From assembly GCA_951812955.1 (NCBI GenBank), contig OX638340.1, forward strand, positions 640,001 through 704,000: a stretch of DNA of 64,000 nt. The letters run 5' to 3'. Positions 4,769-33,079 of the stretch are shown here, piece by piece. The translations under genes and the position numbers were made by a program. Every line of letters starts with the position of its first letter. Position 1 is the stretch's first letter. This stretch comes from an uncultured Gemmatimonadota bacterium (GTDB taxonomy: Bacteria; JAAXHH01). Under the pieces are notes generated by a model, which was not told the DNA's origin, made no database searches, and was given only the letters and a program-made list of their open reading frames with translations.

Positions 4769-5728
4769 ATGAAGCGCAGGCTGGACCTACTGTCCGTGGG
4801 GGACGGAAATCTTGACGTCTGGATGCGCGTGCCGCGCCATACCGGCGGTCTCACGGGAGGCGTGCGGGAAACCGGCATTGTCGGCGACGCCTGCCGGATC
4901 GGACCTGGGGGAGCGGCCGCGAACGTGGCCATAGGGATGGCGCGGCTCGGCGCGCGCACGGCCTTTGTCGGCGCGATCGGCGACGACACGCCCGGTGCGC
5001 AGTTCGCGGATAACATGCGGGAACACGGCGTTGATGTATCCCATCTCCACGTCATGGCCGGCCAGGCGACTTCCCTGGCCTGCATGTTCGAGACGCCCGA
5101 CCGGGAGTACGCGTTCTACGTGTGCCCGGGTCCCAGGTCCATTCCTTCCCACCGCCTCCCAAGCGGTTTCGTCCGGTCGGCACGTATCCTTTACGTAACC
5201 GGCCATGTGCTTACCGAAGAAGAAGCGACCTGCGATGTCATAATCGACGCGATGGCAACGGCACGCGATGCCGGCGTGACGGTAGCGCTGGACCCTGGAA
5301 AGTACTGGCTCAATCCCTCGCTGGAATCCCGTGTGCATGAGGCTGTGAAGCTGACGGACATCATCCTGCCCAACCGCATGGAAGCGGAGCGACTCACGGG
5401 CCGGCGCACTCCCCGTGACGCCGCCGGCGACCTGCTGGCGGCGGGTGTCGGCATTGTAGCCGTGACGATGGGTGACGGGGGCTGCCTGGCGGCGTGTGCA
5501 GACCGCATGATCGAGCGGTCCGCATACCGAACCGGGATCGTTTCCACGGTAGGCGCCGGCGACGCATTCGCCAGCGGGATGCTCTACAGTTTCCTCGCGA
5601 AGGAGAGCCTGGAGGACATGGCGTCTTTTGCGAATGCCGCGGCGGCCATCAAGATAGGCACACCCGGTGCGGCGGAAGGGATGCCCGGCGCGGATGAGGT
5701 CAGGTCGTTTCTGCGGGTAAACGCTTAA
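4769..5728 (+). CDS. PfkB-family carbohydrate kinase (2-dehydro-3-deoxygluconokinase/ribokinase-like)
   Basis: 319 aa. N-terminal GG motif region and C-terminal anion-hole GAGDAF motif (VGAGDAFASGMLY) are characteristic of ribokinase/PfkB kinases. It sits directly downstream of the sugar-acid dehydratase. Confidence 0.8.
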   Translation: MKRRLDLLSVGDGNLDVWMRVPRHTGGLTGGVRETGIVGDACRIGPGGAAANVAIGMARLGARTAFVGAIGDDTPGAQFADNMREHGVDVSHLHVMAGQATSLACMFETPDREYAFYVCPGPRSIPSHRLPSGFVRSARILYVTGHVLTEEEATCDVIIDAMATARDAGVTVALDPGKYWLNPSLESRVHEAVKLTDIILPNRMEAERLTGRRTPRDAAGDLLAAGVGIVAVTMGDGGCLAACADRMIERSAYRTGIVSTVGAGDAFASGMLYSFLAKESLEDMASFANAAAAIKIGTPGAAEGMPGADEVRSFLRVNA

Positions 5729-13025: not shown

Positions 13026-14786
13026 TCAGATTCGCATCAGGTCAGAAACGTCCAATTCAGTTCTGGGCTGGTAGGGTTTGAGAAAACGCATGATCTCTTC
13101 CGACGTGGGCAGGTCCAGGGCTTCGCGGGTTATGGTCTTGAGCTCCTCATAGTCCGCCGAACGGATAAGGCTCTTGATCTCGGGGATATCGATCGGACTC
13201 ATTGAAAGCTCGTCAACGCCTAAACCCAACAGTATGCAGGCTGCAAGCGGATGAGCCGCCATGGCGCCGCAGACACCTACCCAGATATCGTTGTCGTGTG
13301 CGGCATCGATAATCGATGCGACCAGGCGGAGAACCGCCGGGTGGCATGGATTATACAGGGAGGCGATGCTCGGATTGCCCCGATCGGCCGCTACCGTGTA
13401 CTGGATCAGGTCGTTCGTGCCGATGCTGAAAAAGTCCACTTCCTTCGCCAGATCCTGGGCCGTCAGCGCGGCCGAAGGGATTTCGACCATGATCCCGATC
13501 GACATCGATTGATCGACAGGCACACCCGCCTCCAGCAACTCGTCCCTCGCTTCGTTAAAAAGTACCTTTGCCCTTCGGAGTTCATTTAATCCGGATATCA
13601 TTGGAAACATCAGACTTACGTTACCCTCTACACTGGCCCTCAGGATGGCTCGTAACTGTACCTTGAACATTTCCGGCCGATCAAGGCAGAGCCGGATGCC
13701 CCGTTGTCCAAGGGCGGGATTGGCTTCGTCAGGCATCTGTTTGGGCATCTTGTCCGCACCGAGATCCAGCGTGCGTATAATCACGGCATGCGGGGCCATG
13801 CGCTGGGCGATTTTCAGATAAGTCCGGGTCTGTTCATCTTCGGAAGGCAATTCGTTACCCACCAGGTACAGGAATTCGGTACGATACAGGCCGATCCCGT
13901 CCGCACCGTGATTCAAGACGTCTTCCAATTCAGCCGGCAGCTCGATATTGGCCGAAAGCTCGATGCGCCTGCCGTCCCGCGTCTCTGCCGGCAGGTCATG
14001 GAGCTCCTGCAGTTCATGCTCCAAAACTGATAACTGGGATTTCGTTTCCCTGTACCGGCTGATCGTTTCCGGATCCGGATCGAGATGGACCAGCCCGCTG
14101 TTGCCGTCGATAATGATCGTCATTCCGTCTGAAATTTCCTGCGTGGCGATGTTCGCGCCTACCACCGCCGGCACGGCCAGACCGCGGGCGACGATCGCCG
14201 TATGGGACGTCTGGCCTCCGGCGTCGGTGATGAAGCCGCACACCGCGTCGCGATCGATTTCCGCGGTGTCCGAAGGGGACAGGCTGTGGGCTACGAGCAC
14301 AGTCTCTCCCTTCATGTTCTCGATCTCCGTGTGCGCGCTACCCGTGAGCTTGGCCAACACCCGGTAGTGAACGTCTTCGAAATCTGCGGTCCGTTCTCGG
14401 AAGAATGGATTCGCAATGGAGGAGTAGCTGGCAATCCATCCTCGCATCACATCGTCGAAAACATACTCCGCGTTGGCCTTCTCCCGACGAATACGCACGA
14501 TGGTGACATCGACGACCTCCGGATCTTCAAGCACGGCCTGGTGGGTACGGAAGATCTTCAGGATGTCCTGGTCGATATCTACCGCGATGCGGCGCTGCAG
14601 TTGGGTCAGGTCGTCCAGGGCCTCATCGACCGCGGTCTTGAAGCGCTTGATTTCCGCTTCAACTTTGTCAGAGGAAATCTGACGCTGGTGAATGGCGGCG
14701 AAGCGGCGATTGTAAACTAAAGCGCGGCCGATGGCTATGCCTGGTGATGCCGGAATGCCTTTCAGCACGCGGTGCTCATCGCTCAT
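13026..14786 (-). CDS. ptsI: Phosphoenolpyruvate-protein phosphotransferase (PTS enzyme I)
   Basis: 586 aa. Has the active-site His region (GGQTSHTAIVARGLAVPAVVG) and the PEP-utilising TIM-barrel C-terminal domain. Confidence 0.9.
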   Translation of the reverse strand: MSDEHRVLKGIPASPGIAIGRALVYNRRFAAIHQRQISSDKVEAEIKRFKTAVDEALDDLTQLQRRIAVDIDQDILKIFRTHQAVLEDPEVVDVTIVRIRREKANAEYVFDDVMRGWIASYSSIANPFFRERTADFEDVHYRVLAKLTGSAHTEIENMKGETVLVAHSLSPSDTAEIDRDAVCGFITDAGGQTSHTAIVARGLAVPAVVGANIATQEISDGMTIIIDGNSGLVHLDPDPETISRYRETKSQLSVLEHELQELHDLPAETRDGRRIELSANIELPAELEDVLNHGADGIGLYRTEFLYLVGNELPSEDEQTRTYLKIAQRMAPHAVIIRTLDLGADKMPKQMPDEANPALGQRGIRLCLDRPEMFKVQLRAILRASVEGNVSLMFPMISGLNELRRAKVLFNEARDELLEAGVPVDQSMSIGIMVEIPSAALTAQDLAKEVDFFSIGTNDLIQYTVAADRGNPSIASLYNPCHPAVLRLVASIIDAAHDNDIWVGVCGAMAAHPLAACILLGLGVDELSMSPIDIPEIKSLIRSADYEELKTITREALDLPTSEEIMRFLKPYQPRTELDVSDLMRI

Positions 14787-15051
14787 TACACGCCTCCCGG
14801 TCCCTGTCGAACATATCGGTTATCGCCTCTATCGCAGCCGTTTCGTCCGGGCCTTCGATTTCCACCGTAATGGAACAGCCGTGTTCTGCAGCCAGCATCA
14901 TTACACCCATGATGCTCTTTCCATTAACCGGCACTTCGTCCTTGACCAGCGTGATATCCGATTCGAATCGGGAAGCCAAGCGGACCAGTTGTTCGGCGGG
15001 TCGCATGTGCAACCCTTTTCTATTCTTAACGGTAACGGTTTTCCGTACCAA
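14776..15051 (-). CDS. ptsH: Phosphocarrier protein HPr
   Basis: 91 aa. The His15 region is KNRKGLHMRPAEQLV and the Ser46 regulatory region is VNGKSIMGVMML. Overlaps ptsI by 11 nt. Confidence 0.85.
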   Translation of the reverse strand: MVRKTVTVKNRKGLHMRPAEQLVRLASRFESDITLVKDEVPVNGKSIMGVMMLAAEHGCSITVEIEGPDETAAIEAITDMFDRDREACNER

Positions 15052-15089
15052 GGCGCTGCCCGATTCATTCAGACGTAGGTGAGATGCTT

Positions 15090-16073
15090 CTATTCGTAAT
15101 CTTCCCTGCGGTACCTGACACGCTTGCCTTCCTTCATGACCTCCAGCACACGCTGATTCAGTGCCGACGCCGGGTTAATTCCCACTACCTTCAGGAGGTA
15201 CCTGAGCGCGATCACCTCGGATACGACAGTCAGATTCTTACCGGGATTGATAGGTATACGGACAAAGGGAAGTTCCGCGTCGAGTAACGTAGTGGTCTTC
15301 TCATCAAGCGCCGTACGTTCATAGTCGCCGTCGTTGTTCCAGTCTTCCAGATTCACCACCACTTCGATCCGCTTGCGCAAGCGGATGCTCCGGATGCCGA
15401 ACATGCGCGTTACGTCGATAATCCCGACACCGCGAATCTCCATGAAATGTTGCGTGACCGTGTTGCTCGTACCCATGACGATGCCGCGCCGGATTCGGTA
15501 CGCGGTGACCACATCGTCCGCAACCAGCCTGTGACCCCGTTCGACGAGATCGAGGGCCGTCTCGCTTTTGCCGATTCCGCTGCGTCCCGTGAACAGCAGG
15601 CCTACCCCATACACGTCGACCAGGGCGCCGTGTATGGTCGACATCGGCGCGAAATAGGGTTCCAGGTACTCGACCAGGGAATGTACGAAGGCGTCCGTAC
15701 TCAGCGTGGTCCCGAGGACGGCGGTCTCGAATCGCTCGGCGGTTTCGGTCAGTTCCCGAGGCGGATCCATGCCCTTCGTTATGACCATGCAGGGGACGCC
15801 CAGTTCGAACATTCTGTCCAGCGACGTGGACCGCTGTTTCCCGGACAGACTCTTCAGGTAGGTTAATTCGGTTTCTCCCAGGATTTGAATCCTGTTATTG
15901 GAAAACCGCTCGACATATCCCGCCAGCGCGAGTCCCGGCCGGTTCGTCTCCGCGTTTGTGATCTTCCTGGAAAGTCCCGTTTCACCCGTGAGCGGGGACA
16001 GTTTCAGATCGACCTGTTCTACCAGGGTCTTGATCAGCAAGGCGCGCGATTTCAAGGGCGATACCGTGGCCAT
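15090..16073 (-). CDS. hprK: HPr kinase/phosphorylase
   Basis: 327 aa. Has the P-loop GRSGIGKSETALDL and the signature LVADDVV...EIRGVGIID. Confidence 0.9.
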   Translation of the reverse strand: MATVSPLKSRALLIKTLVEQVDLKLSPLTGETGLSRKITNAETNRPGLALAGYVERFSNNRIQILGETELTYLKSLSGKQRSTSLDRMFELGVPCMVITKGMDPPRELTETAERFETAVLGTTLSTDAFVHSLVEYLEPYFAPMSTIHGALVDVYGVGLLFTGRSGIGKSETALDLVERGHRLVADDVVTAYRIRRGIVMGTSNTVTQHFMEIRGVGIIDVTRMFGIRSIRLRKRIEVVVNLEDWNNDGDYERTALDEKTTTLLDAELPFVRIPINPGKNLTVVSEVIALRYLLKVVGINPASALNQRVLEVMKEGKRVRYRREDYE

Positions 16074-20037: not shown

Positions 20038-20632
20038 CCGGTAAAAGCTGGCCTTTAATGTTGCGTCGTATAGTCCATTGGTGCATGCCCGGATCGGCTT
20101 CAAAGCCGTCGCCTGATATGATATCCCGGTCACTGGTCAAACGAACCGCGGCATCCGTTTCAATCACGTTCGCCGCGTTTATCCAGGTCAGGGAATCGGT
20201 TTCCAGGGTGCCTCGCTCCAAACTGTAGACGTTTACATCACCCCAGACACGCAGGTCGTGGGTCTGTCCGTCGATTTCACCCCGCTCGGCTTCCAGCGTC
20301 GAGGCCATTCCGCCGTCTTCTTCGAAGAATTCAACGAAAACGCCCTCGTCGATGACGGTTACGTTGGTTTCGGAGTAATACAGCCGGTGTCCGGCCCTGA
20401 TCGTGGCTTCCTGCCTTCCATCCCGGCTAAGGTAGATCGTCGTGTTCCACGCTTCCTGGTCCGGCGACACATCCTCCGTGCCGTTCTCCGGAGCCAGCTG
20501 ATCGACGGGCCGGCAGGCAGTTGAACATATGATCGCAACCACGACCAGACTTGCCAGAAAAAAGCGGGAAAGCCTTTCCGGTGCAGGGAGATTCAGGCGG
20601 GGCCAAACTTGTGAGAGATGCGAATTCGACAT
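20021..20632 (-). CDS. lptC: LPS export system protein LptC (N-terminal membrane anchor plus periplasmic beta-jellyroll)
   Basis: 203 aa. Has a single N-terminal TM (FFLASLVVVAIICSTA). Its size and its position upstream of lptA-lptB fit LptC. Confidence 0.65.
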   Translation of the reverse strand: MSNSHLSQVWPRLNLPAPERLSRFFLASLVVVAIICSTACRPVDQLAPENGTEDVSPDQEAWNTTIYLSRDGRQEATIRAGHRLYYSETNVTVIDEGVFVEFFEEDGGMASTLEAERGEIDGQTHDLRVWGDVNVYSLERGTLETDSLTWINAANVIETDAAVRLTSDRDIISGDGFEADPGMHQWTIRRNIKGQLLPDAQSR

Positions 20633-20668
20633 GACGGATTATACGCGATATCATCCGGCCAGGCAAGA

Positions 20669-21622
20669 TCAAGTTGGGCGGTCAGCAACTTGCCCGGCCT
20701 GCCTGGACGCCTTCCACCTGTCGTGCATCCATACCCACTGCGCCGGCGTTCTCCTGATGAACCGTTCCAATTCCGCGGTATACTCGCACGTCGTCCTTTC
20801 TACGTCATCCGGATTTCCTCCGGCGGGCCGGATCGGCGGGCGGACCGTTACGAGATGCGTATCGTCCGGGAGACGATGTATGGCCATGGGAACGATTGGC
20901 GCGCCCGACCGGTAGGCCAGCACCGCGGGGCCGGTGGGGGTTCTCGCGGGCCAGCCGAAAAACGGTACCGTGATGCCGGTTCCCCGTGTATCCTGATCCA
21001 CCAGCAACCCAACAACATGACCCTTCTTCAGCGCGCGAAACACGGCGGTGGCTGCCCTGTCGCGGCTCACGACGTTCAATCCGCCGCGCATCCTGTTTTG
21101 CATCAGGAGCGCGTCCAGCCTGGCATCGTACAGCGGCGCGGCCACCACGGTAACGGCAAATCCCTTGAGCGCCAGGTACGTACCCATCAGTTCGAAGTTC
21201 CCCAGGTGGGCGCTCACCGCCACGACACCTCTCCCCTCGCCAAAGGCCGATTCCAGGTACGGAAGTCCGTCGGCCCTGACCAGGTCGTCCACGTTTTCCG
21301 ACGTGACCCGCGGTATACGGGCGACATCCACGACGTTCCGTCCCAGTTCCCGGAAGACGCTCCGGCCCAGTTGCCTGATCTGCCTGCGGGACTTTTCGTC
21401 ACCGTAGGCCAATGTGAGATTGTCAAGGGTCAGGCGCCTGGACCCGCGGGCGGCCAGGTACGCCACGGCACCGGTCCAGCCGCTGACCGTCAAGGCCCAC
21501 CGTCTTGGAACCGCATTCATCAGGGCGATGAACGCACGCACCGCGTGATAGATGGCAACATTGCGCAGGCGTTTGATCAGGGAGGCCACGGCCGCACCCC
21601 AATGAAATTCAAAAGGCCGCAT
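20669..21622 (-). CDS. Lipid A biosynthesis lauroyl/myristoyl acyltransferase (LpxL/HtrB family)
   Basis: From Met35 the N-terminus (MRPFEFHWGAAVASLIKRL...IYHAVRAFIALMNAVPRRWALTVSGW..AYLAARGSRR) matches LpxL. Later blocks (N-terminal TM, AHLGNFE, LVDQD) also match. Overlaps the kdsA stop by 14 nt. Confidence 0.7.
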   Translation of the reverse strand: MRPFEFHWGAAVASLIKRLRNVAIYHAVRAFIALMNAVPRRWALTVSGWTGAVAYLAARGSRRLTLDNLTLAYGDEKSRRQIRQLGRSVFRELGRNVVDVARIPRVTSENVDDLVRADGLPYLESAFGEGRGVVAVSAHLGNFELMGTYLALKGFAVTVVAAPLYDARLDALLMQNRMRGGLNVVSRDRAATAVFRALKKGHVVGLLVDQDTRGTGITVPFFGWPARTPTGPAVLAYRSGAPIVPMAIHRLPDDTHLVTVRPPIRPAGGNPDDVERTTCEYTAELERFIRRTPAQWVWMHDRWKASRQAGQVADRPT

Positions 21623-22439
21623 GGGGCCGCACGACTTCGTCGATCGCCTGCAACCGTTCCAGAAGAGGTTCCAGACGGTCGAGAGGCAACATGCTCGCGG
21701 CGTCGCATAGTGCCTCGGAGACACGGGGATGTGTTTCTATAAAAACGGCGTCACAGCCCGTGGCCACGGCCGCACGGGCGAGTGGCTCGATAAACTCGGG
21801 CGTCCCTCCACTCGGTTCGCTGCTCGGGCGCCCATACAGCCTTACGACATGGGTGGCGTCGAATACCACGGGATATCCGATCCGCCGCATGATGGGCAGC
21901 GACCGCATATCGGCGACGAGATCGTGATATCCGAAAGAGACCCCGCGATCCGTCAGAAGGATTTTCCTGTTACCTGTACTCTCGATTTTTGACACGACCG
22001 AAGCCATGTCTCCCGGGGCAAGAAACTGCCCCTTTTTCACGTTGACGGGTTTCCCGGTGCGGGCCAGGGCAAGGGTCAGTTCCGTCTGCATGGACAGATG
22101 CGCGGGAAGCTGCAGTATATCGAGAACTTCCGCGGCCGCGTCTACTTCCTGGAGACTGTGCACATCCGAGAGCACCGGAACGCCCAGGTCACGCACTTTT
22201 TGCAGCACGCGCAACCCCTCCTGCAGACCGGGGCCCGCGTAATAGTCCACGGAGGAGCGATTCGCCTTCGCGTAAGATGATTTGAAAACGAGCGGCATGC
22301 CCAGGCGGCCGGCTACCGCCATCAGGCGTTCAGCGGTCTCCATGACCACGGCTTCGCTTTCGATTACGCAGGGACCGGCAATCAAGGCCAGTCGCCTTCC
22401 GCCGCCGATGGCCGCGTCTCCGACGAGGATCTCCTTCAT
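21609..22439 (-). CDS. kdsA: 3-deoxy-8-phosphooctulonate (KDO-8-P) synthase
   Basis: 276 aa. Strong match to the KdsA pattern (LIAGPCVIES...VFKSSYDKANRSS...DVHS..Q). Confidence 0.9.
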   Translation of the reverse strand: MKEILVGDAAIGGGRRLALIAGPCVIESEAVVMETAERLMAVAGRLGMPLVFKSSYAKANRSSVDYYAGPGLQEGLRVLQKVRDLGVPVLSDVHSLQEVDAAAEVLDILQLPAHLSMQTELTLALARTGKPVNVKKGQFLAPGDMASVVSKIESTGNRKILLTDRGVSFGYHDLVADMRSLPIMRRIGYPVVFDATHVVRLYGRPSSEPSGGTPEFIEPLARAAVATGCDAVFIETHPRVSEALCDAASMLPLDRLEPLLERLQAIDEVVRPHAAF

Positions 22440-23540: not shown

Positions 23541-25751
23541 CTAAATCTTTTCTAACGCCGCGTACTTGACGATTACCTTCTTGGTCGTGTCGGAAAACCG
23601 GATCGTCGCCCTCAGGTCGTCCCCGCTTCCCGCGACCTGTAAGATACGCCCCTTGCCCCAGACGGGGTGTTTTACATCCTGTCCCCGGGATATCCGTATA
23701 CTGCCCGTCGGCGTCTGCACGGTACGGGGCGACGCGATATCGTCTTCGAACGGGGTATCGGAAGCCTTTTCGTCCTGCTGCCACGATGACCGCGTATAAA
23801 ACCGGCCCGTGCTCTCCCGGGTAACGAGCTCTTCGGGAATCTCGTCGATGAAACGGGACCTCAGCGAGGTCGTGGCACCTCCATATCTCCGCCGCAGATT
23901 GGCATGGGTTAGGAACAGTTGCTCCTGCGCGCGGGTGATGCCCACATAGCACAACCGCCGTTCCTCTTCCAGGTCGGCCGGGCTTTCCATCGCGCGCGAG
24001 ATGGGAAACAGGCCATCTTCCAAACCCGTGATGAAGACGATGGGGAACTCCAGCCCTTTGGCGTTGTGCAGGGTCATCAGGGTGACGCATTCAACGGATT
24101 CGTCCCAGCGGTCAATATCGGTTACCAGGGCTACTTCTTCAAGAAATTCGATCAGGCCGGTGACCGGCTGACCCTCTTCGGGCCTTTCGGTCGCCTCTTC
24201 AAGCGCGGCCATCAACTCGTTTATGTTCTGGACACGGGCCTCGGCCTCAACGTTTTTTGCTGCCTCCAGTTCCAGTTCACGAAGGTAGCCGGTCTTCTCG
24301 AGCAGGCTCCTTGCCGCTTCGGCGCCGGATATCTCATCCAGCCGCGACCTGAGGCGTAGCAGAAATTCCCCGAGATCCGCGGCGGCGCGGGCGGCCTTGC
24401 CTGAAAGCTCCTCCTCACCGGCGCGGTACAGCGCCTCCACATAGTCCATGTCCCGTTCAACGGCCAGGCGCTCCACGCGTCCCACGCTGACGGCTCCAAG
24501 GCCCCTGGCGGGTATGTTGACCATGCGACGGAAACTGATGACGTCTCTGCCGTTTACCAGGATCTTGAGATAGGCCAGGACGTCCTTGACTTCTTTCCGT
24601 TCGAAAAATCTCACGCCGCCTACAATCACGTAGGGCATGCCGGCGCGGCGCAATTCGTCCTCCAGCGTCCGCGACTGGGCGTTGGTTCGATAGAGCAGGG
24701 TGAAGTCTCTCAGAGACCTGCCGGCCCCGTTGCGCATCTCCTGGATCTTCCGGGAAATCCACCTTGCCTCGTCCCGTTCGTCCAGCGTCTCCACAAGGCC
24801 GATCTTCTCCCCGGTCGGGTTATCCGTCCACAGCTCTTTGCCCTTGCGGTCCTTGTTGTTTCTGATGACCTCGTTCCCCGCCTTCAGAATCAGCCCGGTG
24901 GATCGGTAGTTCTGTTCCAGGCGGACGACCCGCGCTTCGGGATAGTCTTTTTCAAATTCGAGGATGTTGCGGATATCCGCGCCCCGCCAGGCGTAGATGG
25001 ACTGGTCGTCATCCCCCACCACGCAGAGGTTCCTGTACTTTTTAGCCAATCGGTTGATCCATTCGTACTGGGCGCGGTTGGTATCCTGGTACTCATCCAC
25101 CAGAATGTACTGGAATCGTTCCTGATACCGGCTCAACAGGTCCGGATGCGTCGCGTATCCTTCGGCCAGCCGCATGATCAGATCGTCGAAATCCAGCGCG
25201 TTGCAGTCTTCCAGCGCTAGCTGATACGCATCGTAAACTCGGGAAACCACCTGCTGTTCGAAGAAATCACCGTGCTGATCCTTGTATTCGCCAGGCGGTA
25301 TGAGCCGATCTTTCGCTCCGCTGATATGGTTGCGCACCGCCTCCGGCGCAAAGCGTTTATCGGATATTTCCAGGTCCTTCATCAATCTGCGGATCAGCGT
25401 AAGCTGATCATCGCCGTCATAAATCACGAAATCCCGGCGGAAGCCCAGGGTCTCCGCCTCGCGGCGAAGTATCCGCGCGGAGAGCGAATGGAACGTGCCC
25501 ACCCACTGGGGGACGTCCCCCTGGACGAGCATGCGTTCTATCCGGTCCTTCATCTCCGCGGCCGCCTTGTTCGTGAACGTGACGGCCAGGATGTGATAGG
25601 GATCGATGCCGAGATTTTCGACGAGGTGGGCGATCCGGGAGGTCAACACCCGGGTCTTGCCGCTTCCGGCGCCGGCGAGCACAAGCAGCGGTCCATCGAG
25701 ATGGGACGCGGCCTTGAGTTGAGCGGGATTCAGTTCGCCAGCGAGGTTCAT
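23541..25751 (-). CDS. pcrA: ATP-dependent DNA helicase PcrA/UvrD (SF1A)
   Basis: 736 aa. Has motif I (LVLAGAGSGKTRVLT) and motifs II-VI including VDEYQDTN and TLHNAKGLEFPIVF. Confidence 0.9.
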   Translation of the reverse strand: MNLAGELNPAQLKAASHLDGPLLVLAGAGSGKTRVLTSRIAHLVENLGIDPYHILAVTFTNKAAAEMKDRIERMLVQGDVPQWVGTFHSLSARILRREAETLGFRRDFVIYDGDDQLTLIRRLMKDLEISDKRFAPEAVRNHISGAKDRLIPPGEYKDQHGDFFEQQVVSRVYDAYQLALEDCNALDFDDLIMRLAEGYATHPDLLSRYQERFQYILVDEYQDTNRAQYEWINRLAKKYRNLCVVGDDDQSIYAWRGADIRNILEFEKDYPEARVVRLEQNYRSTGLILKAGNEVIRNNKDRKGKELWTDNPTGEKIGLVETLDERDEARWISRKIQEMRNGAGRSLRDFTLLYRTNAQSRTLEDELRRAGMPYVIVGGVRFFERKEVKDVLAYLKILVNGRDVISFRRMVNIPARGLGAVSVGRVERLAVERDMDYVEALYRAGEEELSGKAARAAADLGEFLLRLRSRLDEISGAEAARSLLEKTGYLRELELEAAKNVEAEARVQNINELMAALEEATERPEEGQPVTGLIEFLEEVALVTDIDRWDESVECVTLMTLHNAKGLEFPIVFITGLEDGLFPISRAMESPADLEEERRLCYVGITRAQEQLFLTHANLRRRYGGATTSLRSRFIDEIPEELVTRESTGRFYTRSSWQQDEKASDTPFEDDIASPRTVQTPTGSIRISRGQDVKHPVWGKGRILQVAGSGDDLRATIRFSDTTKKVIVKYAALEKI

Positions 25752-26010
25752 TCACCGATCCCAAACGGCCGTGTGAAGGGACAGTAGATCCGGACTTGGG
25801 CTTGCGCCATCCATCTGGAAACCAAGGTGAGTAGCGCGGAAACATAATACACCCCTGTAAGAGACACTGTCAACAGAATCGTGGAACGGAAAGAGGCCGT
25901 CCGCAGTCGTTCCAATCAAAGATTCGTTGAATATACGGGCCAGCCCGGTATATTATGGCGGATCGATTTAAACCCGTATATCCGGAGCAAGAGGCGCAGG
26001 AACTCTGTCT

Positions 26011-27468
26011 ATGCTGGACTGTCTGACGGAACGCGGAACCGTGTCCGCCGACGTTGAAGCCTTCGAAAACGCACTGGCGTGCTCGCCAGAGAGCCCCTAC
26101 GGCCCGCTGGGAGCGCGATTCTCCGTCAAAAAACCGATTTATGTGGTCAGGGCTCCAGCGCGGCTGGACTGCATGGGTGGCATAGCGGACTACAGTGGTT
26201 CACTGGTTTGCGAGATGACACTCGACCAGGCCGTTTTGTTGGGCATCCAGGCACGGGACGACCGGAAGGTGGTCATACACAGCGCGGGCGTCGACGTACT
26301 CGGCATGTCGCCGGACGTTACGCTGGCCCTCGACGACCTGGCACCCGGTGGAAGTACCGTAGACTACGATACCGTAAAACGTAGTTTCTCCCGGACGCCG
26401 GAATCGGCCTGGGCAGCGTACGTGGCCGGGGCTTTCAGCGTGTTGCAGGGGGAAAGGCACGTGGATCGTTTCCCCCACGGCGCCACCATCGTGCTCGTGA
26501 GCGACATCCCGCTTCGGGTGGGCGTCTCTTCCTCAGCCGCGCTGGAAATCGCCGCCATGCAGGGACTGAACCTGCTCTACGGGACCGACCTTGACGGGAT
26601 GACGCTGGCCGTCCTTTCCCAGAAGGTGGAAAACCACGTGGTCGGCGCGGCCTGCGGCATCATGGACCAGGTCACCTGCGCCATGGGGACCCGGGACTGC
26701 CTGCTTTCCCTGTTCTGCCAGCCCCATACCGTACAGGAACAGATTCCCTTGCCGGAAGGGGTTCGTTTTATCGGTATAAACTCCGGCGTCCGTCGGGAGA
26801 TCAAGAGCTCGCGGTATACAAACAGCCGAATCGGCGCGTTCATGGGCCTTGCGATCATACGGGATAACCTGCGTTCCGGCAACGGAACGGCCTCAAATCC
26901 CCGCCTTGGTTACCTGTGCAATCTGTCCACCAGAGAATACGTGGATTTCTACCGATCCCTGCTGCCATCAAGCATCCTGGGGCGGGAGTTTACGCGGCGG
27001 TACGTAACCACGCCCGACCCGGTGACGACCGTTGACCCGGCGGTACGGTATATGGTGCGCAGCCGCGTGGAACACCCGGTTTACGAACACCGCAGGGTGA
27101 AAGAATTCACCGAATGTATCCGTTCGGCAGGAACCACGGACAAACCGGGACTTCTCGAGCGGGCAGGCAGGTTGATGTATGCCTCCGACTGGAGTTACAC
27201 GCACCGCTGCGGACTCGGCTGCGCCGAGACGTCCTGGATCGTCCGCGAGATCAGGAAACTGGGCGTTGAAGCGGGATTCTATGGCGCCAAGATAACGGGA
27301 GGCGGCGCTGGGGGAACGGTCGCCGTAGCCGGAGACGATCGCATGTTCGGCCACCTGGACAACCTGCTCGAGCGCTACGGTGAATCCACCGGTATCGAGG
27401 CACGGCTCTTTAACGGGACTTCGTCGGGCGCACTGGAATTCGGGCACCGAGTCTACCGAATAACCTGA
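26011..27468 (+). CDS. GHMP-family sugar-1-kinase (fucokinase/galactokinase/arabinokinase-like)
   Basis: 485 aa. The N-terminal RAPARLDCMGGIADYSG resembles the fucokinase/GalK RAPARIDLAGGWSD/GEHTDY motif. Has the GHMP motif 2 (PLRVGVSSSAALE) and motif 3 (GAKITGGGAGGTV). Confidence 0.7.
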   Translation: MLDCLTERGTVSADVEAFENALACSPESPYGPLGARFSVKKPIYVVRAPARLDCMGGIADYSGSLVCEMTLDQAVLLGIQARDDRKVVIHSAGVDVLGMSPDVTLALDDLAPGGSTVDYDTVKRSFSRTPESAWAAYVAGAFSVLQGERHVDRFPHGATIVLVSDIPLRVGVSSSAALEIAAMQGLNLLYGTDLDGMTLAVLSQKVENHVVGAACGIMDQVTCAMGTRDCLLSLFCQPHTVQEQIPLPEGVRFIGINSGVRREIKSSRYTNSRIGAFMGLAIIRDNLRSGNGTASNPRLGYLCNLSTREYVDFYRSLLPSSILGREFTRRYVTTPDPVTTVDPAVRYMVRSRVEHPVYEHRRVKEFTECIRSAGTTDKPGLLERAGRLMYASDWSYTHRCGLGCAETSWIVREIRKLGVEAGFYGAKITGGGAGGTVAVAGDDRMFGHLDNLLERYGESTGIEARLFNGTSSGALEFGHRVYRIT

Positions 27469-27502
27469 GCGGGTTGCACCGGATTCGAGGGAGTTGCAGG
27501 CA

Positions 27503-28420
27503 TTGAATCGTATTCGAAAAGCGGTCATACCCATTGCGGGACACGGCATCCGCATGATGCCGGCGACCCGTGCGGTACGCAAAGCGCTGTTTCCCATCGT
27601 GGACGACCGCGGACGGGTACGTCCCGTACTTCAGTTGATCATCGAGGAAGCGCTCAACGCGGAAATCGAGGAAATCGGCCTGGTGATCGCACCGGAAGAC
27701 AAGGCCCATATTGGCGCCTACTTCTCGCGGTTGCCCGGCCCGTTAAAAAAAGTAATTGGAAATCACGAAGAATTGCTGGAAGCGGCCGAGTTGCCGGGTC
27801 GTATTGCGGATAAACTGACCATAATCACCCAGGATCGCCCCAACGGACTCGGCGATGCCGTACTCCGAGCGGCGCCCTGGATCGGCGGCGACCCTTTCCT
27901 GGTCATGCTCGGTGACCACCTGTACCTCAGCCATGAAAAAAGATGCTGTGCGCGCCAGTTGCTGGACGCCTACGCGGATCTGCAGGCCCCGGTATCGGGT
28001 TTGATCCGCAAGCCCGTAGATGCCATCGGACATTTCGGCACGGTTTCAGGTCGACCCGAACCCCGCTCGAAAGGGCTTTATGCCCTTGACGCCGTGGTGG
28101 AAAAACCGGATATAAACCTTGCGCGTGACCGGTTGCGCGTGGAGGGGCTGCCGAAAGATACGTATTACTGCTGGTTTGGCCTGCACGCCATGAAGCCTGA
28201 CATCTTCGACTGCCTGGCGCGGATGGAAAGGGACGGCGCCGCGGATGGCGGAGAACTGCAGCTGACCGGGGCGCAGGCCATGTTATCGAAGCAGCGAACA
28301 ACCTACGGACTGGAAATCAACGGCGAGCACTTCGACACAGGCTCGCCGCGTGGATACGTCGATGCCGTCACGGCTTTCGCCGATCCCGCCGGTTTTTCCG
28401 GGAATCCTGACAACCGGTAA
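27503..28420 (+). CDS. Sugar-1-phosphate nucleotidyltransferase (GalU/UDP-sugar pyrophosphorylase-like)
   Basis: The N-terminal KAVIPIAGHGIRMMPATRAVRKALFPIV matches the GalU KAVIPAAGLGTRFLPATK..PKEMLPIV signature. There is no in-frame ATG before this motif. A TTG at 27503 with a GAGGGAG Shine-Dalgarno 9 nt upstream is the likely start (the ORF-track entry begins at the TTG at 27494). It begins 35 nt after the kinase stop. Confidence 0.7.
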   Translation: MNRIRKAVIPIAGHGIRMMPATRAVRKALFPIVDDRGRVRPVLQLIIEEALNAEIEEIGLVIAPEDKAHIGAYFSRLPGPLKKVIGNHEELLEAAELPGRIADKLTIITQDRPNGLGDAVLRAAPWIGGDPFLVMLGDHLYLSHEKRCCARQLLDAYADLQAPVSGLIRKPVDAIGHFGTVSGRPEPRSKGLYALDAVVEKPDINLARDRLRVEGLPKDTYYCWFGLHAMKPDIFDCLARMERDGAADGGELQLTGAQAMLSKQRTTYGLEINGEHFDTGSPRGYVDAVTAFADPAGFSGNPDNR

Positions 28421-28533
28421 AACACCGGAACGTGCGCGACCGATCGCCGACCCTGAATCATTCGAACAGTTAACCCCAAGGCGGCACAGTTCGCCTTTCA
28501 TTTCGTTCAAAACACGAAAAGGAATCCTAGACC

Positions 28534-29250
28534 ATGTCTGTACCGGAAGCTCCATCACGAGAAACGCTCGAATCCCTGCTCATACCGAGCACCGCTACGC
28601 TGACTTCCGTGCTCACGGAGTACGGGCTGTATAACACCTTCATGCACGACGTCACACCGCTCGAACCCGGCGCGCGCATGGCGGGACCGGCATTTACCCT
28701 GCGGTACATACCCGGCCGGGAAGACATCACGCACGTGCCCGTGGACAATCTGACGGATATGCAGCGCATCGGCATCGAAAGCATTCAGCAGGGCGAGGTG
28801 CTCGTGATCGACGCACGGGGTGATACCCGAGCCGGCGTCATGGGCGACATCCTCGCCACGAGAATCCAGCAGCGCGGGGCCGCGGGGGTCGTCAGCGACG
28901 GCGCATTCCGGGATACTCCGGCCATCGTGGAGACCGGAATGGCCGCGTACGCCCGGACCATGAACGCCCATAACAGCAAAAGCGTACATTATCCGAGTGA
29001 CATTCAGCGTCCCATCGCCTGCGGCGGTGTAGCGGTTTTCCCTGGAGATATCGTCGTGGGAGATACAGAAGGCGTGGTGGTCATTCCGCGCCACCTGGCC
29101 GAAGAAGTGGCGGCCAAGGCCGTCGCGCAGGAAGACCGGGAAGTGTTCATCCTGGAGAAAATCCAGCAGGGACACAGCATCATCGGCGTATACCCGCCCG
29201 ATGAGCAAACCCTCGCGGAATACGAGGCGTGGAAGGCTAAAAGGGGCTGA
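28534..29250 (+). CDS. RraA-family protein (regulator of RNase E activity A / 4-hydroxy-4-methyl-2-oxoglutarate aldolase-like)
   Basis: 238 aa. Shows the RraA/MenG-like swivelling beta/beta/alpha pattern (GDVLVIDARGD..AGVMGDILA...GAAGVVSDGAFRD). Confidence 0.65.
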   Translation: MSVPEAPSRETLESLLIPSTATLTSVLTEYGLYNTFMHDVTPLEPGARMAGPAFTLRYIPGREDITHVPVDNLTDMQRIGIESIQQGEVLVIDARGDTRAGVMGDILATRIQQRGAAGVVSDGAFRDTPAIVETGMAAYARTMNAHNSKSVHYPSDIQRPIACGGVAVFPGDIVVGDTEGVVVIPRHLAEEVAAKAVAQEDREVFILEKIQQGHSIIGVYPPDEQTLAEYEAWKAKRG

Positions 29251-29254
29251 ACGC

Positions 29255-31570
29255 TCAGCCGGTGGCCAAATCCGCGATTCGTTGCAGGGCCACCACCGCC
29301 AGCAGTCTCTCCTCGGCGTGCAGGGCCCTGTTCCGGCCTTCGGATTCCAGGCCCGACAGTACCCTGTACGCTAGTTCCACCCCTTCCAAACCCGCCGAAG
29401 AATCTCCCGCAGGCGCCGCATCCACGGCAGAAACGTCCGGTAAATCGGTACGCACCGTGCGAAGTACTTCCCTTGCGATTTCGACGAGTTGCTTCAGCAT
29501 CTCACCGGTTTGTTGCCGTTCGAAAGCGGCCATCGCCCGGTCGACTGCGGCCGTGTACCGATCCCTCGCATCTCGCTCGACATGTGACCAGCCGCCCAGT
29601 TGCCGGCGGACGGACCGGAATAACCGTACCGTCGACCGGTCCTGGTTCATCTCACCGGCCTGAAGCAACTGATACAGGAGATCCGGGGCGCCAAGGAGAT
29701 GCCCCGCCGACATGATCAGTACACCGCGTTCGAGACTGGTTTCGCTGGTCCTGATGAGGTCCTGAAGCCGGCTCAGTATCCCGGTATTGCCCATTCTGGC
29801 CAGCGTTTCCAGGGTAGTCTGGACGATCGCGGGGTCCCGTTCGTGTTCGAGCAGGGCTTCCAGCGCCGTCTCAACGCGCCGGTCCCCGATTCGATCGAGG
29901 GCGATTACGGCGCTTCGCCGGATGCCGGGGCGTTCATCGTGAAGCAGGGTCACCAGGATGTTGAGGCTGAGCGACGACGGCACCGAGCCCAGGGCCTCCA
30001 CGGCCTCCTCGGCGATGTCAGACGATGGGTTTCCCACGCATTCGAGCAGTGGGTTCACGGCCTCTTCCGCGCCGATCCTGCTCAGGGACTGCACTGCTTC
30101 CCGCCGCACGTTGCGATCGCTGTCATCCAGCAACGCGATCAACTCGTCCACAGCCAGGTGACTTCCGGTTTCGCCCAGTTCACGGGCCGCCCGGGCCCGG
30201 ACCGTTGGATTGCTGGATTTTCCCATGCGCACCAGGTGCCAGAGGGTCGCAATGGGATTCCCCTTGCGCACCCGGTTGATCACGTCACGGGGGGAGACCT
30301 GCGAATCGGAGACCAGGCGGGCCAGCAGGCCCATGTAGGATATTCGAAGCACCCCGTTGGCGAGGAAGAGGTATTGCAGTCCCGCGAAGGTGTAGCCGAA
30401 GAAGGATACGGCAGGTATGGAGGTACACAGTTCGGCGGCTATTCCACCGATTATGGCGCCGCACGCCGCGCATCCTCTCGATACCGCGGAGTAGCATCCC
30501 AGGAATGCGGAGCGGTTGGCCGCCGGGGCCGTTTTGACGATGAGATTGAACCGGGCCGTACCCCATCCCGCGCTCATGCTGCCGCCCCAGATCTGCACCA
30601 GCGGCACCATGACCCAGTAGTTGTCCAGCGTTACGAATCCCCATCCCAGCGGGAAAATGGCCAGTCCCGTGGCGGTAAGCGACATGACCGGCTTGTAACC
30701 GTACTTGTCCGCCAGGTAGCCCCAGAATGGATTCATGATGATCGTCGCGATAGTTTGTATTGCCGAGAAAACCGCGATCTGGGCGTAGGATACTTCGAGC
30801 GTCCGCAGCATGTAGACCGTGAAGAATGGCGCGGCGATCTGGGCGATGACGAGCCGCCCTGAAACCAGGAACATCAATTTGCGAAAAGGAGCGTGCCGGA
30901 AGGGGAGACGAAGCAGCTGGTTCGGCGGGACGCGCTCGCCCCTGCTCTTTCGCGGTTCGGGAATGCACGACCAGGCCCAGATCCCGAATCCTGAAAAGAC
31001 CACGGCCACGATGAATATGATACTGAAACCCTCCTGCGAGTCGCCCGCGGCGTATGTACTCAGGAAGAATCCCGCGCACACCGACGTGATCAGGCCGGCG
31101 GACGCCGTCAGGCTGCGCTGGCGCGCGACGAAGCGGCCGCGGATCTCGTCGGGAATCAGGTCGGTCAGCCAGGACTGACGCGCCGGAGAAACCAGGGACA
31201 TGGCGGCTTTCGATAAAGCGATGCAGGCTATGAGCGCCAGTAGTTGGTTCCCTTCGAAGAAGAGAAAGGGAATGAAGGCGATGGGCAGCCAGAGGGATGT
31301 GCTGACGCCATTGGCAAGCAGGCACAGCGTTTTGCGCCGGGGCAGGCGTTCGATAAGTAGCGGAGAGAAAGCCTGTAACAACTGACCGATGGAAATGGAG
31401 GCGGAAATAAAGCCGATCATGGCGGTGGATGCACCGAGATGCAGGGCGTAACCGGTGGTGTAAACGCCGGTGGTTATCGCGGAATGGACCGACTCGAGCA
31501 TGCCGTTCACGTTCCACATGCGCATTCCGCGCGCCGTCTGCAACCGGGTCAGTTTTCTCTCTTGTTGCAC
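29255..31570 (-). CDS. Fusion protein: N-terminal MFS transporter (about 12 TM) plus C-terminal HEAT/PBS-lyase-like repeat domain
   Basis: 771 aa. The first roughly 420 aa are polytopic (MFS-like, two 6-TM halves, with a GYLADKYGYKP loop). The C-terminal roughly 350 aa carry repeated DxxxxVRxxAxxALxxIG units (NVRREAVQSLSRIG, RPGIRRSAVIALDRIG, NPTVRARAARELGETG) typical of PBS-lyase HEAT-like repeats. Confidence 0.65.
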   Translation of the reverse strand: MQQERKLTRLQTARGMRMWNVNGMLESVHSAITTGVYTTGYALHLGASTAMIGFISASISIGQLLQAFSPLLIERLPRRKTLCLLANGVSTSLWLPIAFIPFLFFEGNQLLALIACIALSKAAMSLVSPARQSWLTDLIPDEIRGRFVARQRSLTASAGLITSVCAGFFLSTYAAGDSQEGFSIIFIVAVVFSGFGIWAWSCIPEPRKSRGERVPPNQLLRLPFRHAPFRKLMFLVSGRLVIAQIAAPFFTVYMLRTLEVSYAQIAVFSAIQTIATIIMNPFWGYLADKYGYKPVMSLTATGLAIFPLGWGFVTLDNYWVMVPLVQIWGGSMSAGWGTARFNLIVKTAPAANRSAFLGCYSAVSRGCAACGAIIGGIAAELCTSIPAVSFFGYTFAGLQYLFLANGVLRISYMGLLARLVSDSQVSPRDVINRVRKGNPIATLWHLVRMGKSSNPTVRARAARELGETGSHLAVDELIALLDDSDRNVRREAVQSLSRIGAEEAVNPLLECVGNPSSDIAEEAVEALGSVPSSLSLNILVTLLHDERPGIRRSAVIALDRIGDRRVETALEALLEHERDPAIVQTTLETLARMGNTGILSRLQDLIRTSETSLERGVLIMSAGHLLGAPDLLYQLLQAGEMNQDRSTVRLFRSVRRQLGGWSHVERDARDRYTAAVDRAMAAFERQQTGEMLKQLVEIAREVLRTVRTDLPDVSAVDAAPAGDSSAGLEGVELAYRVLSGLESEGRNRALHAEERLLAVVALQRIADLATG

Positions 31571-31573
31571 GAT

Positions 31574-33079
31574 CTACAGTCTCCGGTTCCTGGACAGTAT
31601 CCAGCTTACCGCCGTACCGACGGCAAGATTCACGCCCAATGCCATCGGACTGATCCACATGAAGCTGACTGGGTCGCTCCCATCGGGCAGCATGCCGAAC
31701 AGCGGCCCGGAGAAGGCGATCAGCGAAGCGGTGAGGATGCCGCACACGGCGCCCGCGACGACGCCGGCCGGGCGGGCGAACGGCACGAACAACGCGAAGA
31801 CGAACAGGGCGAAAATGGGCGTCGTCAGCAGGTTCGAAGTCTTGTTGGTTACCGCCGTGATGTTGCCGGGCACCAGTTCCATCAGCGAGCTCGCGCCCAC
31901 GACAATGGCGCCGATGACGAATGCGAGCGATTTCGCCGTCCGCGTCAGCTGTTTCTCGGTCGCCGGGGATTTTCTGAACCGGCCGATGAAATCCGTCGAA
32001 ACCACTGCCGTAATAGCGTTGACCCCCGAGTCCAGGCTCGACATGGCGGCTGCGAACATGGCGGCTACCACGAATCCGGACACGCCGGGGGGAAGATAGT
32101 AGGCAATGTAATGGGGGAACACGTGGTCCGCCCGGCCGGCCAGGTCGGTACTGGCGGGCAGCAGATCGGGCTGGGCCTGGAAGAAGCCCAGGAGCGCGAA
32201 ACCGGCCACCCACAGGGTGATCCCGATGCAGAGCCCCACCAGTTGCTGGGTCAGGTACGACCGCCGGGCCGCGCGGGCGTCGGTCGTCGCCATGAAGCGC
32301 TGTACCACGGTCTGGTCTCCCCCGGCCGTGGCTATGGCCCACGTCATGGACGCCAACATGGATCCGATCACGGTCAGTCGCACGGACGGGTCCAGACTGA
32401 AGACCGGCTGTTCGTCCCAGTGAGGCTGCCAGGAATTCGGAATCCAACCGAATCCGTCGAAATGCATGGTAACCGTGACGATAACCAGGATGGCGCCTCC
32501 GAGCATGAGCAGGGTTTGCATCGTATCGGTGATCACCACCGCCCGCAGGCCGCCGAGTGAGGTGTAAACAACCGCGACGAACCCGGTAACCAGCGTGATG
32601 GCGGGGATCCAGTCATCTCCCACGCCCAGCATGACCGTCATGGCCTTGGCGGACAGGTAGATCAGGAGGGCCATCCAGACCAGTCGGAGCAGGATGAACA
32701 TGACCGCGCCCAGCAGGCGGATGCCCACGCCGAGCCGATCCTCCAGCAGCTCATAGGCGCTCGTAACGCGCGTCCGCATGTAAACCGGGATCAGTACGTA
32801 GCCCACCACCACGAAGATGATCGGGATCGTCAGGTAGTTGAGCATCCAGACGGGCCCCTTGCCGATGGCCTCGCCCGGGATGGACAGGTAGGAGATCGTG
32901 CTGAGCAGGGTGGCGAACAGTGAGAAGCCGATCAGCGTCGGCGGCATGTTCCCCCCGCCGGTGAAATACTCGCTGACCGTGCTTTGCCTTCGGCTGTAAT
33001 AGTATCCCAGCGAGATGGTCGCGAAGGCGTATCCGACGATGATGGTCCAGTCGACGAGCGTCAGTCCGCCGGAGGGCAT
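31574..33079 (-). CDS. Sodium:solute symporter (SSS/SLC5 family)
   Basis: About 500 aa from Met21 (MPSGGLTLVDWTIIVGYAFATISLGYYYSRR...), a canonical SSS N-terminus. An alternative Met at 33139 would begin 1 nt after the pyk stop. The stop lies 3 nt before the MFS::HEAT start. Confidence 0.85.
   Translation of the reverse strand: MPSGGLTLVDWTIIVGYAFATISLGYYYSRRQSTVSEYFTGGGNMPPTLIGFSLFATLLSTISYLSIPGEAIGKGPVWMLNYLTIPIIFVVVGYVLIPVYMRTRVTSAYELLEDRLGVGIRLLGAVMFILLRLVWMALLIYLSAKAMTVMLGVGDDWIPAITLVTGFVAVVYTSLGGLRAVVITDTMQTLLMLGGAILVIVTVTMHFDGFGWIPNSWQPHWDEQPVFSLDPSVRLTVIGSMLASMTWAIATAGGDQTVVQRFMATTDARAARRSYLTQQLVGLCIGITLWVAGFALLGFFQAQPDLLPASTDLAGRADHVFPHYIAYYLPPGVSGFVVAAMFAAAMSSLDSGVNAITAVVSTDFIGRFRKSPATEKQLTRTAKSLAFVIGAIVVGASSLMELVPGNITAVTNKTSNLLTTPIFALFVFALFVPFARPAGVVAGAVCGILTASLIAFSGPLFGMLPDGSDPVSFMWISPMALGVNLAVGTAVSWILSRNRRL

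Follow-up and report, generated by a model that had tools for sequence, protein, structure and literature searches.

Which sugar, if any, is handed from one enzyme to the next when a sugar-kinase gene and a nucleotidyltransferase gene stand side by side among housekeeping genes? The question is raised by a 64,000-nt stretch of DNA (the window; contig OX638340.1 of assembly GCA_951812955.1, positions 640,001 to 704,000, forward strand) from an uncultured Gemmatimonadota bacterium, in which the gene for a GHMP-family kinase is followed by a gene for a GalU-fold sugar-1-phosphate nucleotidyltransferase (NT). We propose that the pair is a small operon that would convert a free monosaccharide to a uridine diphosphate (UDP)-sugar in two steps, the sugar most likely being L-arabinose, and we put the probability of this reading at about 0.6. 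An initial annotation of the window, made from its letters, had pointed to the pair as a candidate salvage module. The peptides that it quoted (RAPARLDCMGGIADYSG, PLRVGVSSSAALE, GAKITGGGAGGTV and KAVIPIAGHGIRMMPATRAV) were all located in the two open reading frames (ORFs), and both ORFs were verified on the plus strand, adjacent and in the same orientation. The pair and its flanking signals are as follows.

25927..25956, plus strand: promoter-like site, TTGAAT and TATATT/TATTAT with a 16-18 nt spacer, 55-85 nt 5' of the kinase ATG
26011..27468, plus strand: kinase ORF, 485 aa, ATG start
27487..27493, plus strand: Shine-Dalgarno-like GAGGGAG for the NT start at 27503; GGGAG conserved in the related loci L081 and L001
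27494..28420, plus strand: NT ORF in its longest form, 308 aa, TTG start
27503..28420, plus strand: NT from the conserved start, 305 aa, TTG at 27503; GalU-fold sugar-1-phosphate nucleotidyltransferase
28478..28507, plus strand: terminator-like hairpin AAGGCGGCACAGTTCGCCTT, its T-rich tail weak, in the interval from the NT stop to the following gene

Conservation of the pair and exchange of its second gene

A protein search scored more than 7,000 clusters of kinase homologues, and 80 kinase loci, one genome per species, were scanned for their surroundings; in the contig collection a 95% relative (P0001) served as proxy for the window kinase. An NT gene was found directly downstream of the kinase gene, on the same strand and 30-480 nt away, in 18 of the 80 loci. 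These 18 carry the phylum labels Gemmatimonadota, Verrucomicrobiota, Armatimonadota, Acidobacteriota, Planctomycetota and Fibrobacterota. The nearest homologues come from Gemmatimonadota metagenome-assembled genomes (MAGs), and the kinase-then-NT order was kept in all seven Gemmatimonadota relatives (L001, L002, L081-L084). Kinase genes also turned up in MAGs with the labels Capsulimonas, Nibricoccus and Pyrinomonas. In L002 and L083/L084 the pair was retained though all other synteny was gone, so that the conserved unit consists of the two genes. Many distant genomes repeat this gene order on a shared strand, so the adjacency is not a matter of chance. No kinase-NT fusion protein was present among the homologues listed.

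The neighbour genes of the 80 kinase loci were clustered. The kinase adjoined GalT in 29 loci and NT in 18, and not one of the 80 had both. The GalT-linked loci were mostly from Acidobacteriota and Chloroflexota, and their GalT is bona fide (TIGR00209, 316 bits, cut-off 102). This mutual exclusion beside one kinase is best explained if GalT and NT both act on the product of the kinase, a sugar-1-phosphate, and make a UDP-sugar from it. The replacement of one by the other therefore backs the two-step conversion of a free sugar to a UDP-sugar suggested by the initial annotation.

Neighbour-joining trees were consistent with this linkage. The window NT fell in a Gemmatimonadota subclade in which every member is kinase-linked (6/6), and a second, mostly Verrucomicrobiota-labelled clade was likewise linked throughout (13/13); the remaining NT family was mostly stand-alone. 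The NT-linked clades of the kinase tree matched those of the NT tree. Sister to the Gemmatimonadota NT-linked clade were Poribacteria kinases (L005-L012, L016, L017, L023, L024) with no NT within 8 kb. Their neighbours are instead a gene for a large DUF6785/DUF6784 membrane protein and two genes to which we tentatively give the labels HlyD-like and TolC-like. When metagenome loci were scanned from the NT side (80 loci, 57 of them informative), the kinase was upstream in 8, and 49 had at least 1.5 kb of upstream sequence without it. Most NT homologues thus stand alone, and the NT family overall is not dedicated to the kinase; the trees reconcile this count with that from the kinase side. Conservation of the pair, which the initial annotation had asked about, holds for the Gemmatimonadota relatives and across six phylum labels, and does not extend to the wider NT family.

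The gap between the two ORFs as listed, from the kinase stop to 27494, is 25 nt. NT homologues begin MNRIRKAV or MKRIRKAV, and the NT of the 95%-identical relative L081 was called at 305 aa. In a DNA alignment of the window, L081 and L001, the conserved NT start corresponds to window position 27503, the codon being TTG for the window as for L081 and GTG for L001, and GGGAG sits 8-10 nt 5' of the aligned start codon in all three. The NT therefore probably starts at TTG 27503, 9 nt downstream of 27494, which makes the gap between the two genes 34 nt. A TTG start had been noted initially; the non-ATG start is upheld, while its position at 27494 is less likely than 27503. The promoter-like site of the kinase has a stronger counterpart back-to-back with it on the minus strand (25873-25844), which would serve the divergent UvrD/PcrA gene. 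A consensus scan of the region gave 4 promoter-like sites against 0.9 expected, a pattern match alone that says nothing on function. The hairpin between NT and the following RraA-like gene suggests a bicistronic unit; the evidence is weak, as shuffled sequence had terminator-like hairpins in numbers no lower than those of the region. No Rfam family matched in 25000-29500.

Family assignment of the kinase and the nucleotidyltransferase

The kinase matched the Pfam families GHMP_kinases_N (PF00288, 1.4e-17, 64.1 bits, cut-off 22.3) and GHMP_kinases_C (PF08544, 2e-4, 22.1 bits, cut-off 21); GalKase_gal_bdg remained below threshold (19.7 bits vs 23.1). Motif II (PLRVGVSSSAA) and motif III (KITGGGAGGTV) are both present and identify it as a member of the GHMP kinase superfamily, and residues G171, S174, S175, A176 and G430-G435 are invariant in its family. 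All NCBIfam galactokinase models scored under their cut-offs (TIGR00131, 152.4 bits vs 226.65; NF003006, 155.2 vs 443), and the GalK signature GRVNLIGEHxDY with its Glu-His pair is absent. Mevalonate kinase (57.8 bits vs 403) and HddA (16.7 bits vs 600) scored far under the galactokinase models, and both identities were rejected. The kinase thus does not group with HddA or the mevalonate-pathway kinases; such a grouping is what the initial annotation had named as fatal to its proposal. Its description of the kinase as fucokinase/galactokinase-like was supported as to the GalK superfamily and unsupported as to fucokinase, since the Fucokinase Pfam family had no match to the kinase at E<=0.01. 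Membership of the FKP type was rejected on the same ground and because the NT partner has a GalU fold.

The best solved relative of the kinase is AbGHMP (PDB 9ulx/9uly, E=3.9e-97 across residues 13-480), a full-length homologue whose N-terminal motif RAPGRLDVMGGIADYSGSLV is nearly identical to RAPARLDCMGGIADYSGSLV in the window; a literature search found no paper on AbGHMP. This full-length similarity, together with the motif RLDxMGGIADYSG, places the kinase in the ARA1/AbGHMP type. We take this motif to be that of plant ARA1, the placement being made via AbGHMP. JGI names many of the kinase homologues 'L-arabinokinase' and others 'galactokinase'. As judged from its sequence, the protein is a GHMP-family anomeric sugar-1-kinase of the ARA1/AbGHMP type, in the GalK superfamily yet not a GalK.

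In an alignment with human GALK1, Arg37, Asp46, Gly183, Asp186 and Tyr236 are kept as R51, D60, G216, D219 and Y269, and the catalytic Arg51 and Asp219 are thus present. Glu43-His44 of GALK1 correspond to Gly57-Ile58. These and other pocket positions are identical in 19 NT-linked and 30 GalT-linked kinases and differ from those of the canonical GalK of one locus. We take it from GalK structures that Glu43 and His44 bind galactose at its C6 hydroxyl. A kinase that lacks this pair would suit a sugar such as L-arabinose, in which the C6 group of galactose is missing. Some Armatimonadota kinases (P0080 and P0111; L162 1184-3115) carry an N-terminal Amidase_2 (N-acetylmuramoyl-L-alanine amidase/PGRP) domain, and no NT adjoins them.

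The NT matched NTP_transferase (PF00483, 1.5e-15) over residues 9-294, nearly its whole length. This is its sole Pfam domain, so it does not belong to the eukaryotic-type UDP-sugar pyrophosphorylases (USP, PF01704). It scored under the cut-offs of the galU models (TIGR01099, 147.5 bits vs 326.8; NF009928, 91.9 vs 548) and of the MurU model (NF045761, 16.8 bits vs 250, E=0.0046). All its matches in the PDB by sequence were GalU/UGPase enzymes, with E down to 7e-28. An AlphaFold model (pLDDT 89.6) gave as its top 50 PDB fold matches only bacterial GalU/UGPase structures, at TM 0.73-0.80 and 25-30% identity. On this model the predicted fold is of the GalU type, and the NT is not a GalU equivalog. 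The fold matches bear out the initial assignment of the NT to the GalU rather than the FKP type, and the TIGR01099 score, far under its cut-off, speaks against the bona fide GalU that had been named as a counter-case.

Residues Gln110, Gly115, Asp138 and Glu200-Lys201-Pro202 were invariant in an alignment of 22 NT family members. From GalU and RmlA we take them to be base-contacting, metal-binding and phosphate-binding residues, which makes it plausible that the NT is an active enzyme preferring uridine (or thymidine) nucleotides. Compared with GalU, the NT family has a 5-residue insertion after PIVD and an 11-residue insertion just after EKP, both near the active site, and the window clade reads GHGIRMMPATR where GalU has GxGTRFLPATK.

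Candidate substrate and rival readings

The genes that recur around the kinase, besides GalT and NT, bear on the choice of sugar.

GalE: TIGR01179, 409-432 bits (cut-off 262)
GalM-like mutarotase: Aldose_epim Pfam match; NF008277, 351.5 bits (cut-off 240)
Sugar ABC transporter: binding protein, permease and ATPase
GH51 alpha-L-arabinofuranosidase: present in some 7-10 loci
GH127 beta-L-arabinofuranosidase: immediately 5' of GalT-AbGHMP; also in two further loci

About 10 GalT-type loci carry GH51 or GH127 L-arabinofuranosidases. XylA (TIGR02631, 542 bits, cut-off 447) and XylB (TIGR01312, 578 bits, cut-off 380) occur in operons of both module types, with GalT in L027, L031, L033, L055, L061, L072, L045 and L079 and with NT in L104/L107, L126, L130 and L105. 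Of the 80 loci, 28-30 have an inositol-monophosphatase-like gene with the kinase, and in several metagenome loci (L085, L104/L107 and L126) such a gene lies between kinase and NT. The proteins from GalT-type and NT-type loci share 46% identity over their full length; the protein had no NCBIfam match at the thresholds used (E<=1e-5 for that of L107) and matched Pfam Inositol_P weakly. The gene order in L072 is GalT, inositol-monophosphatase-like gene, kinase, GalE, XylB, XylA, and that in L126 is kinase, inositol-monophosphatase-like gene, NT, SDR-family gene, XylA, with L104/L107 and L130 alike. E. coli AraA had no match in the sequences searched, and AraB and AraD matched one locus only. A bona fide GalK (362 bits) lies 6 kb from the ARA1-type kinase in L045, so that the latter is not simply the local galactokinase.

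In Acidobacteriota and Chloroflexota MAGs, operons that hold GalT, the inositol-monophosphatase-like gene, the ARA1-type kinase, GalE and XylB/XylA span L072 5849-13233, L033 5898-11485, L031 4195-16923, L027 506-9377 and L061 41-9332, and some of them add GalM and a GH51 arabinofuranosidase. Fuller NT-type modules, in the order kinase, inositol-monophosphatase-like gene, NT, SDR epimerase-like gene and with XylA nearby, span L104/L107 3605-7823, L126 2018-9286, L130 366-4534 and L085 3591-6897.

AbGHMP itself is P0241, from a MAG labelled Acidobacteria bacterium (GCA_018269055.1), and belongs to the GalT-linked clade. The order at its locus is GH127, GalT, AbGHMP, and the 10 kb of flank shown to each side hold no NT. 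Upstream lie AP_endonuc_2 and FGGY genes, which were considered as XylA/XylB and rejected, since NCBIfam identified them as rhamnose isomerase and rhamnulokinase. Besides these two genes and GH127, the locus (L164 1-10013) holds a molybdenum hydroxylase pair and a DUF7790 protein, which suggests a region for the use of plant cell wall (pectin or extensin) sugars.

In the route that we propose, the GHMP kinase would use ATP to phosphorylate the anomeric hydroxyl of the free sugar, giving a sugar-1-phosphate, and the GalU-fold NT would condense this with UTP to give a UDP-sugar and pyrophosphate. The most likely course would be from L-arabinose via beta-L-arabinose-1-phosphate to UDP-beta-L-arabinopyranose. 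The UDP-sugar may then serve glycosyltransferases and glycan synthesis, or it may be 4-epimerised by a GalE encoded elsewhere and enter central metabolism. XylA/XylB, GalE, GalM and the arabinofuranosidases of related loci point at least as much to a catabolic route as to glycan synthesis. The family assignments, the intact catalytic motifs, the gene order kept across six phylum labels and the mutually exclusive exchange of NT for GalT in the sister clade are observed; which sugar enters, that UTP is used and where the UDP-sugar goes are inferred. L-arabinose is our best guess on the strength of the sister-clade context, the missing Glu-His pair and names derived from KEGG; a related galacto-configured sugar that lacks the C6 hydroxymethyl group recognised by GalK is a possible alternative. 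According to the initial annotation, the sequence does not reveal the substrate. That statement stands, and the genomic context now favours L-arabinose.

Several observations weigh against this proposal. The arabinose signal stems from the GalT clade and not from the NT-linked loci, in which GH51 and GH127 were never found. Among annotated large ORFs and in tblastn searches, the 64-kb window has no arabinofuranosidase, GalE, GalT, inositol-monophosphatase-like gene, XylA or glycosyltransferase, so that the inference of arabinose is borrowed from the sister clade. The presumed link to ARA1 comes from the JGI names and the motif. In the window clade the phosphate-binding signature of the NT is altered (GxGTR to GHGIR, ATK to ATR), and NT homologues at 35-41% identity mostly lack a kinase within 6 kb (49 of the 57 informative metagenome loci). 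Literature searches found no published activity for either the bacterial kinase family or the NT family.

Alternatively, the pair might handle D-galactose and bypass GalT in the Isselbacher manner. In that case the kinase would be a non-canonical galactokinase serving galactose catabolism, and the NT would interconvert galactose-1-phosphate and UDP-galactose as well as UDP-glucose and glucose-1-phosphate, with GalE encoded elsewhere. The best curated matches of the kinase are indeed galactokinase models, some of its homologues bear that name in JGI, the residues that bind O1-O4 of galactose are conserved, and the sister clade is embedded in Leloir genes (GalT, GalE and a GalM-like mutarotase). 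We nevertheless consider galactose rather unlikely. Every family member has Gly-Ile in place of the Glu-His pair to which we ascribe recognition of the C6 hydroxyl, the kinase falls under every GalK cut-off, and a true GalK stands alongside the ARA1-type kinase in L045. Moreover, the co-located hydrolases are arabinofuranosidases and not galactosidases, and the operons share XylA/XylB and not pgm-type genes. A different doubt concerns the NT, which might be a housekeeping UDP-glucose pyrophosphorylase that receives no intermediate from the kinase and stays beside it through lineage-specific synteny or loose co-regulation. Its fold and closest solved relatives, all GalU/UGPase, are compatible with such a role, as are the mostly stand-alone homologues at 35-41% identity in varied contexts and the housekeeping neighbourhood in the window (Lpt/Kds, UvrD, pyruvate kinase and IleRS). 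This role is improbable given that the TIGR01099 score is less than half of the cut-off and that the family has insertions near EKP and an altered signature. The complete kinase linkage of two NT clades also argues against it, as does the linkage in Gemmatimonadota that outlasts other synteny (L002, L083/L084). A housekeeping role would, in addition, leave the mutual exclusion of NT and GalT beside the kinase unaccounted for, together with the resemblance of the loci holding kinase, inositol-monophosphatase-like, NT, SDR-family and XylA genes to the GalT-type gene sets.

The Amidase_2 (AmpD/PGRP-type) fusions of some Armatimonadota kinases (P0080, P0111) and the faint MurU match of the NT (E=0.0046) raise the thought of cell-wall amino-sugar recycling. 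The pair would then be a non-orthologous analogue of AmgK/MurU, taking N-acetylmuramic acid (MurNAc) via MurNAc-1-P to UDP-MurNAc. We regard this as highly improbable: the NT reaches 16.8 bits on the MurU model, whose cut-off is 250, neutral-sugar genes dominate the family context, and no other peptidoglycan-recycling genes were found in any locus examined. A peptidoglycan-recycling reading of the fusions themselves was rejected because the fusion loci have neither an adjoining NT nor recycling genes.

Surroundings in the window and relation to known pathways

The pair is set among housekeeping genes.

Upstream of the pair, minus strand: Lpt and Kds lipopolysaccharide genes, GatC, UvrD/PcrA
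28534..29250, plus strand: RraA-like/class II aldolase-family gene, Pfam RraA-like 1.3e-34; NCBIfam PRK08245, 282.6 bits (cut-off 208)
Beyond the RraA-like gene, minus strand: MFS-HEAT fusion, sodium:solute symporter (SSF), pyruvate kinase, IleRS

The RraA-like gene follows the pair in L081, L001 and L082 and is absent from L002, L083/L084 and all non-Gemmatimonadota loci, which makes it doubtful as a member of the module. The RraA-like gene, the MFS-HEAT fusion and the SSF symporter were rejected as members because their synteny is restricted to L081 and L001 (for RraA also L082), and, in the case of RraA, because the terminator-like hairpin stands between it and NT. The RraA-like gene (28534-29250) also matches the C-terminal half of a fumarylacetoacetate-hydrolase fusion model. 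Searches of the 64-kb window by tblastn with GalT, GalE, inositol-monophosphatase-like and GH51 proteins gave no match, and neither did searches with XylA, XylB and GalM; glycosyltransferase, GalE, GalT and glycoside hydrolase were not found among the annotated large ORFs or in the tblastn searches. A Leloir-type operon, with GalT and GalE encoded beside the kinase, is thus not present here, and such genes belong to the sister clade. The window holds the minimal, two-gene form, with no epimerase, phosphatase or xylose genes in its 64 kb.

Other features of the window were noted in passing. At 29255-31570 (minus strand) a 771-aa protein joins an MFS transporter to C-terminal HEAT/PBS-lyase-type repeats, an unusual architecture kept in L081 and L001. 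Genes for a D-2-hydroxyacid dehydrogenase, an IlvD/Edd-family dehydratase and a PfkB kinase at 476-5728 and 10002-11120 may be a sugar-acid catabolic set, and a TRAP DctP-type binding protein is encoded near them. PTS enzyme I and HPr kinase are encoded at 13026-16073. A 595-aa protein (7054-8841, plus strand) is probably secreted or located on the cell surface; it matches Lamin Tail Domain twice and has an FlgD Ig-like domain. Long ORFs (370-720 aa) at 30285-32447 (minus), 29699-30862 (plus) and 20618-21742 (plus) overlap real genes in another frame or strand and resemble spurious ORFs of the kind that GC-rich DNA often contains, not genes.

Activation of a sugar in two steps, by a kinase and then a pyrophosphorylase, has well-known examples in plant ARA1/USP, Bacteroides FKP and AmgK/MurU. 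In plants, L-arabinose is salvaged by the arabinokinase ARA1 and then by USP (PMC12281597). The initial annotation had drawn this comparison, and it is the closest analogy that we found, with 'L-arabinokinase' the JGI name of many kinase homologues. Both systems would lead from a free sugar via a sugar-1-phosphate to a UDP-sugar, and their kinases are apparently of the same GHMP subtype. However, ARA1 has an N-terminal glycosyltransferase-like domain that the bacterial kinase lacks, USP is of the eukaryotic USP/UGPase type (PF01704) whereas NT has the GalU fold (PF00483), and the bacterial genes are adjacent and likely co-transcribed. FKP and AmgK/MurU share with the pair the salvage logic of kinase plus pyrophosphorylase. 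FKP differs in being one fused protein with a fucokinase-type GHMP domain and a GDP-sugar product, and AmgK in not being a GHMP kinase. Among bacterial GalU enzymes the NT finds its fold (TM 0.73-0.80), its length class and its conserved Gln, Gly, Asp and EKP, and it departs from them in its 25-30% identity, its altered signature, its 5- and 11-residue insertions and its dedication to the kinase in two clades. AbGHMP, homologous to the window kinase over its full length, differs in belonging to the GalT-linked clade, its gene following GH127 and GalT with no NT in the flanks shown.

Also comparable is the Leloir pathway (GalK, GalT, GalE and GalM), in which a GalK-superfamily kinase likewise precedes uridylyl transfer, and relatives of the kinase do share operons with GalT, GalE and GalM. 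That either GalT or NT may accompany the kinase parallels the alternatives of the Leloir and Isselbacher routes, the latter having a UDP-hexose pyrophosphorylase in place of GalT. In contrast to the Leloir pathway, the kinase falls under the GalK cut-offs and lacks Glu-His, the window has no GalT, GalE or GalM, and the partners of the module are arabinofuranosidases, xylose isomerase, xylulokinase and an inositol-monophosphatase-like protein. Literature searches found no published account that pairs a bacterial ARA1-type kinase with a GalU-fold transferase dedicated to it, and none of a Leloir-like arabinose route.

From the operons L072 and L126 (with L104/L107 and L130 alike), the presence of GH51/GH127 and GalM and the lack of an AraA match, one may tentatively read the pair and its relatives, taken as a whole system, as the minimal form of an undescribed bacterial Leloir/Isselbacher-like pathway from L-arabinose to xylose, a possibility to which we give a fairly low probability. 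The ARA1-type kinase would phosphorylate L-arabinose at C1, and GalT or the GalU-like NT would uridylylate the L-arabinose-1-phosphate. A GalE-type enzyme would 4-epimerise UDP-L-arabinose to UDP-xylose, from which the same transferase, working in reverse, would free xylose-1-phosphate. The inositol-monophosphatase-like protein would strip the phosphate, and xylose would pass to XylA and XylB, so that arabinose would reach xylulose-5-phosphate independently of AraBAD.

If the sugar is L-arabinose, the pair would provide a bacterial route to UDP-L-arabinose that bypasses UDP-xylose, with possible use in the enzymatic synthesis of UDP-pentoses. The module also offers a testable functional context for the orphan structure AbGHMP. 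Its carriers belong to little-studied soil and marine phyla, namely Gemmatimonadota, Acidobacteriota, Verrucomicrobiota, Chloroflexota and Armatimonadota, and together with the GalT-type operons it may represent a fourth, nucleotide-sugar-based way in which bacteria use the arabinose of plant cell walls.

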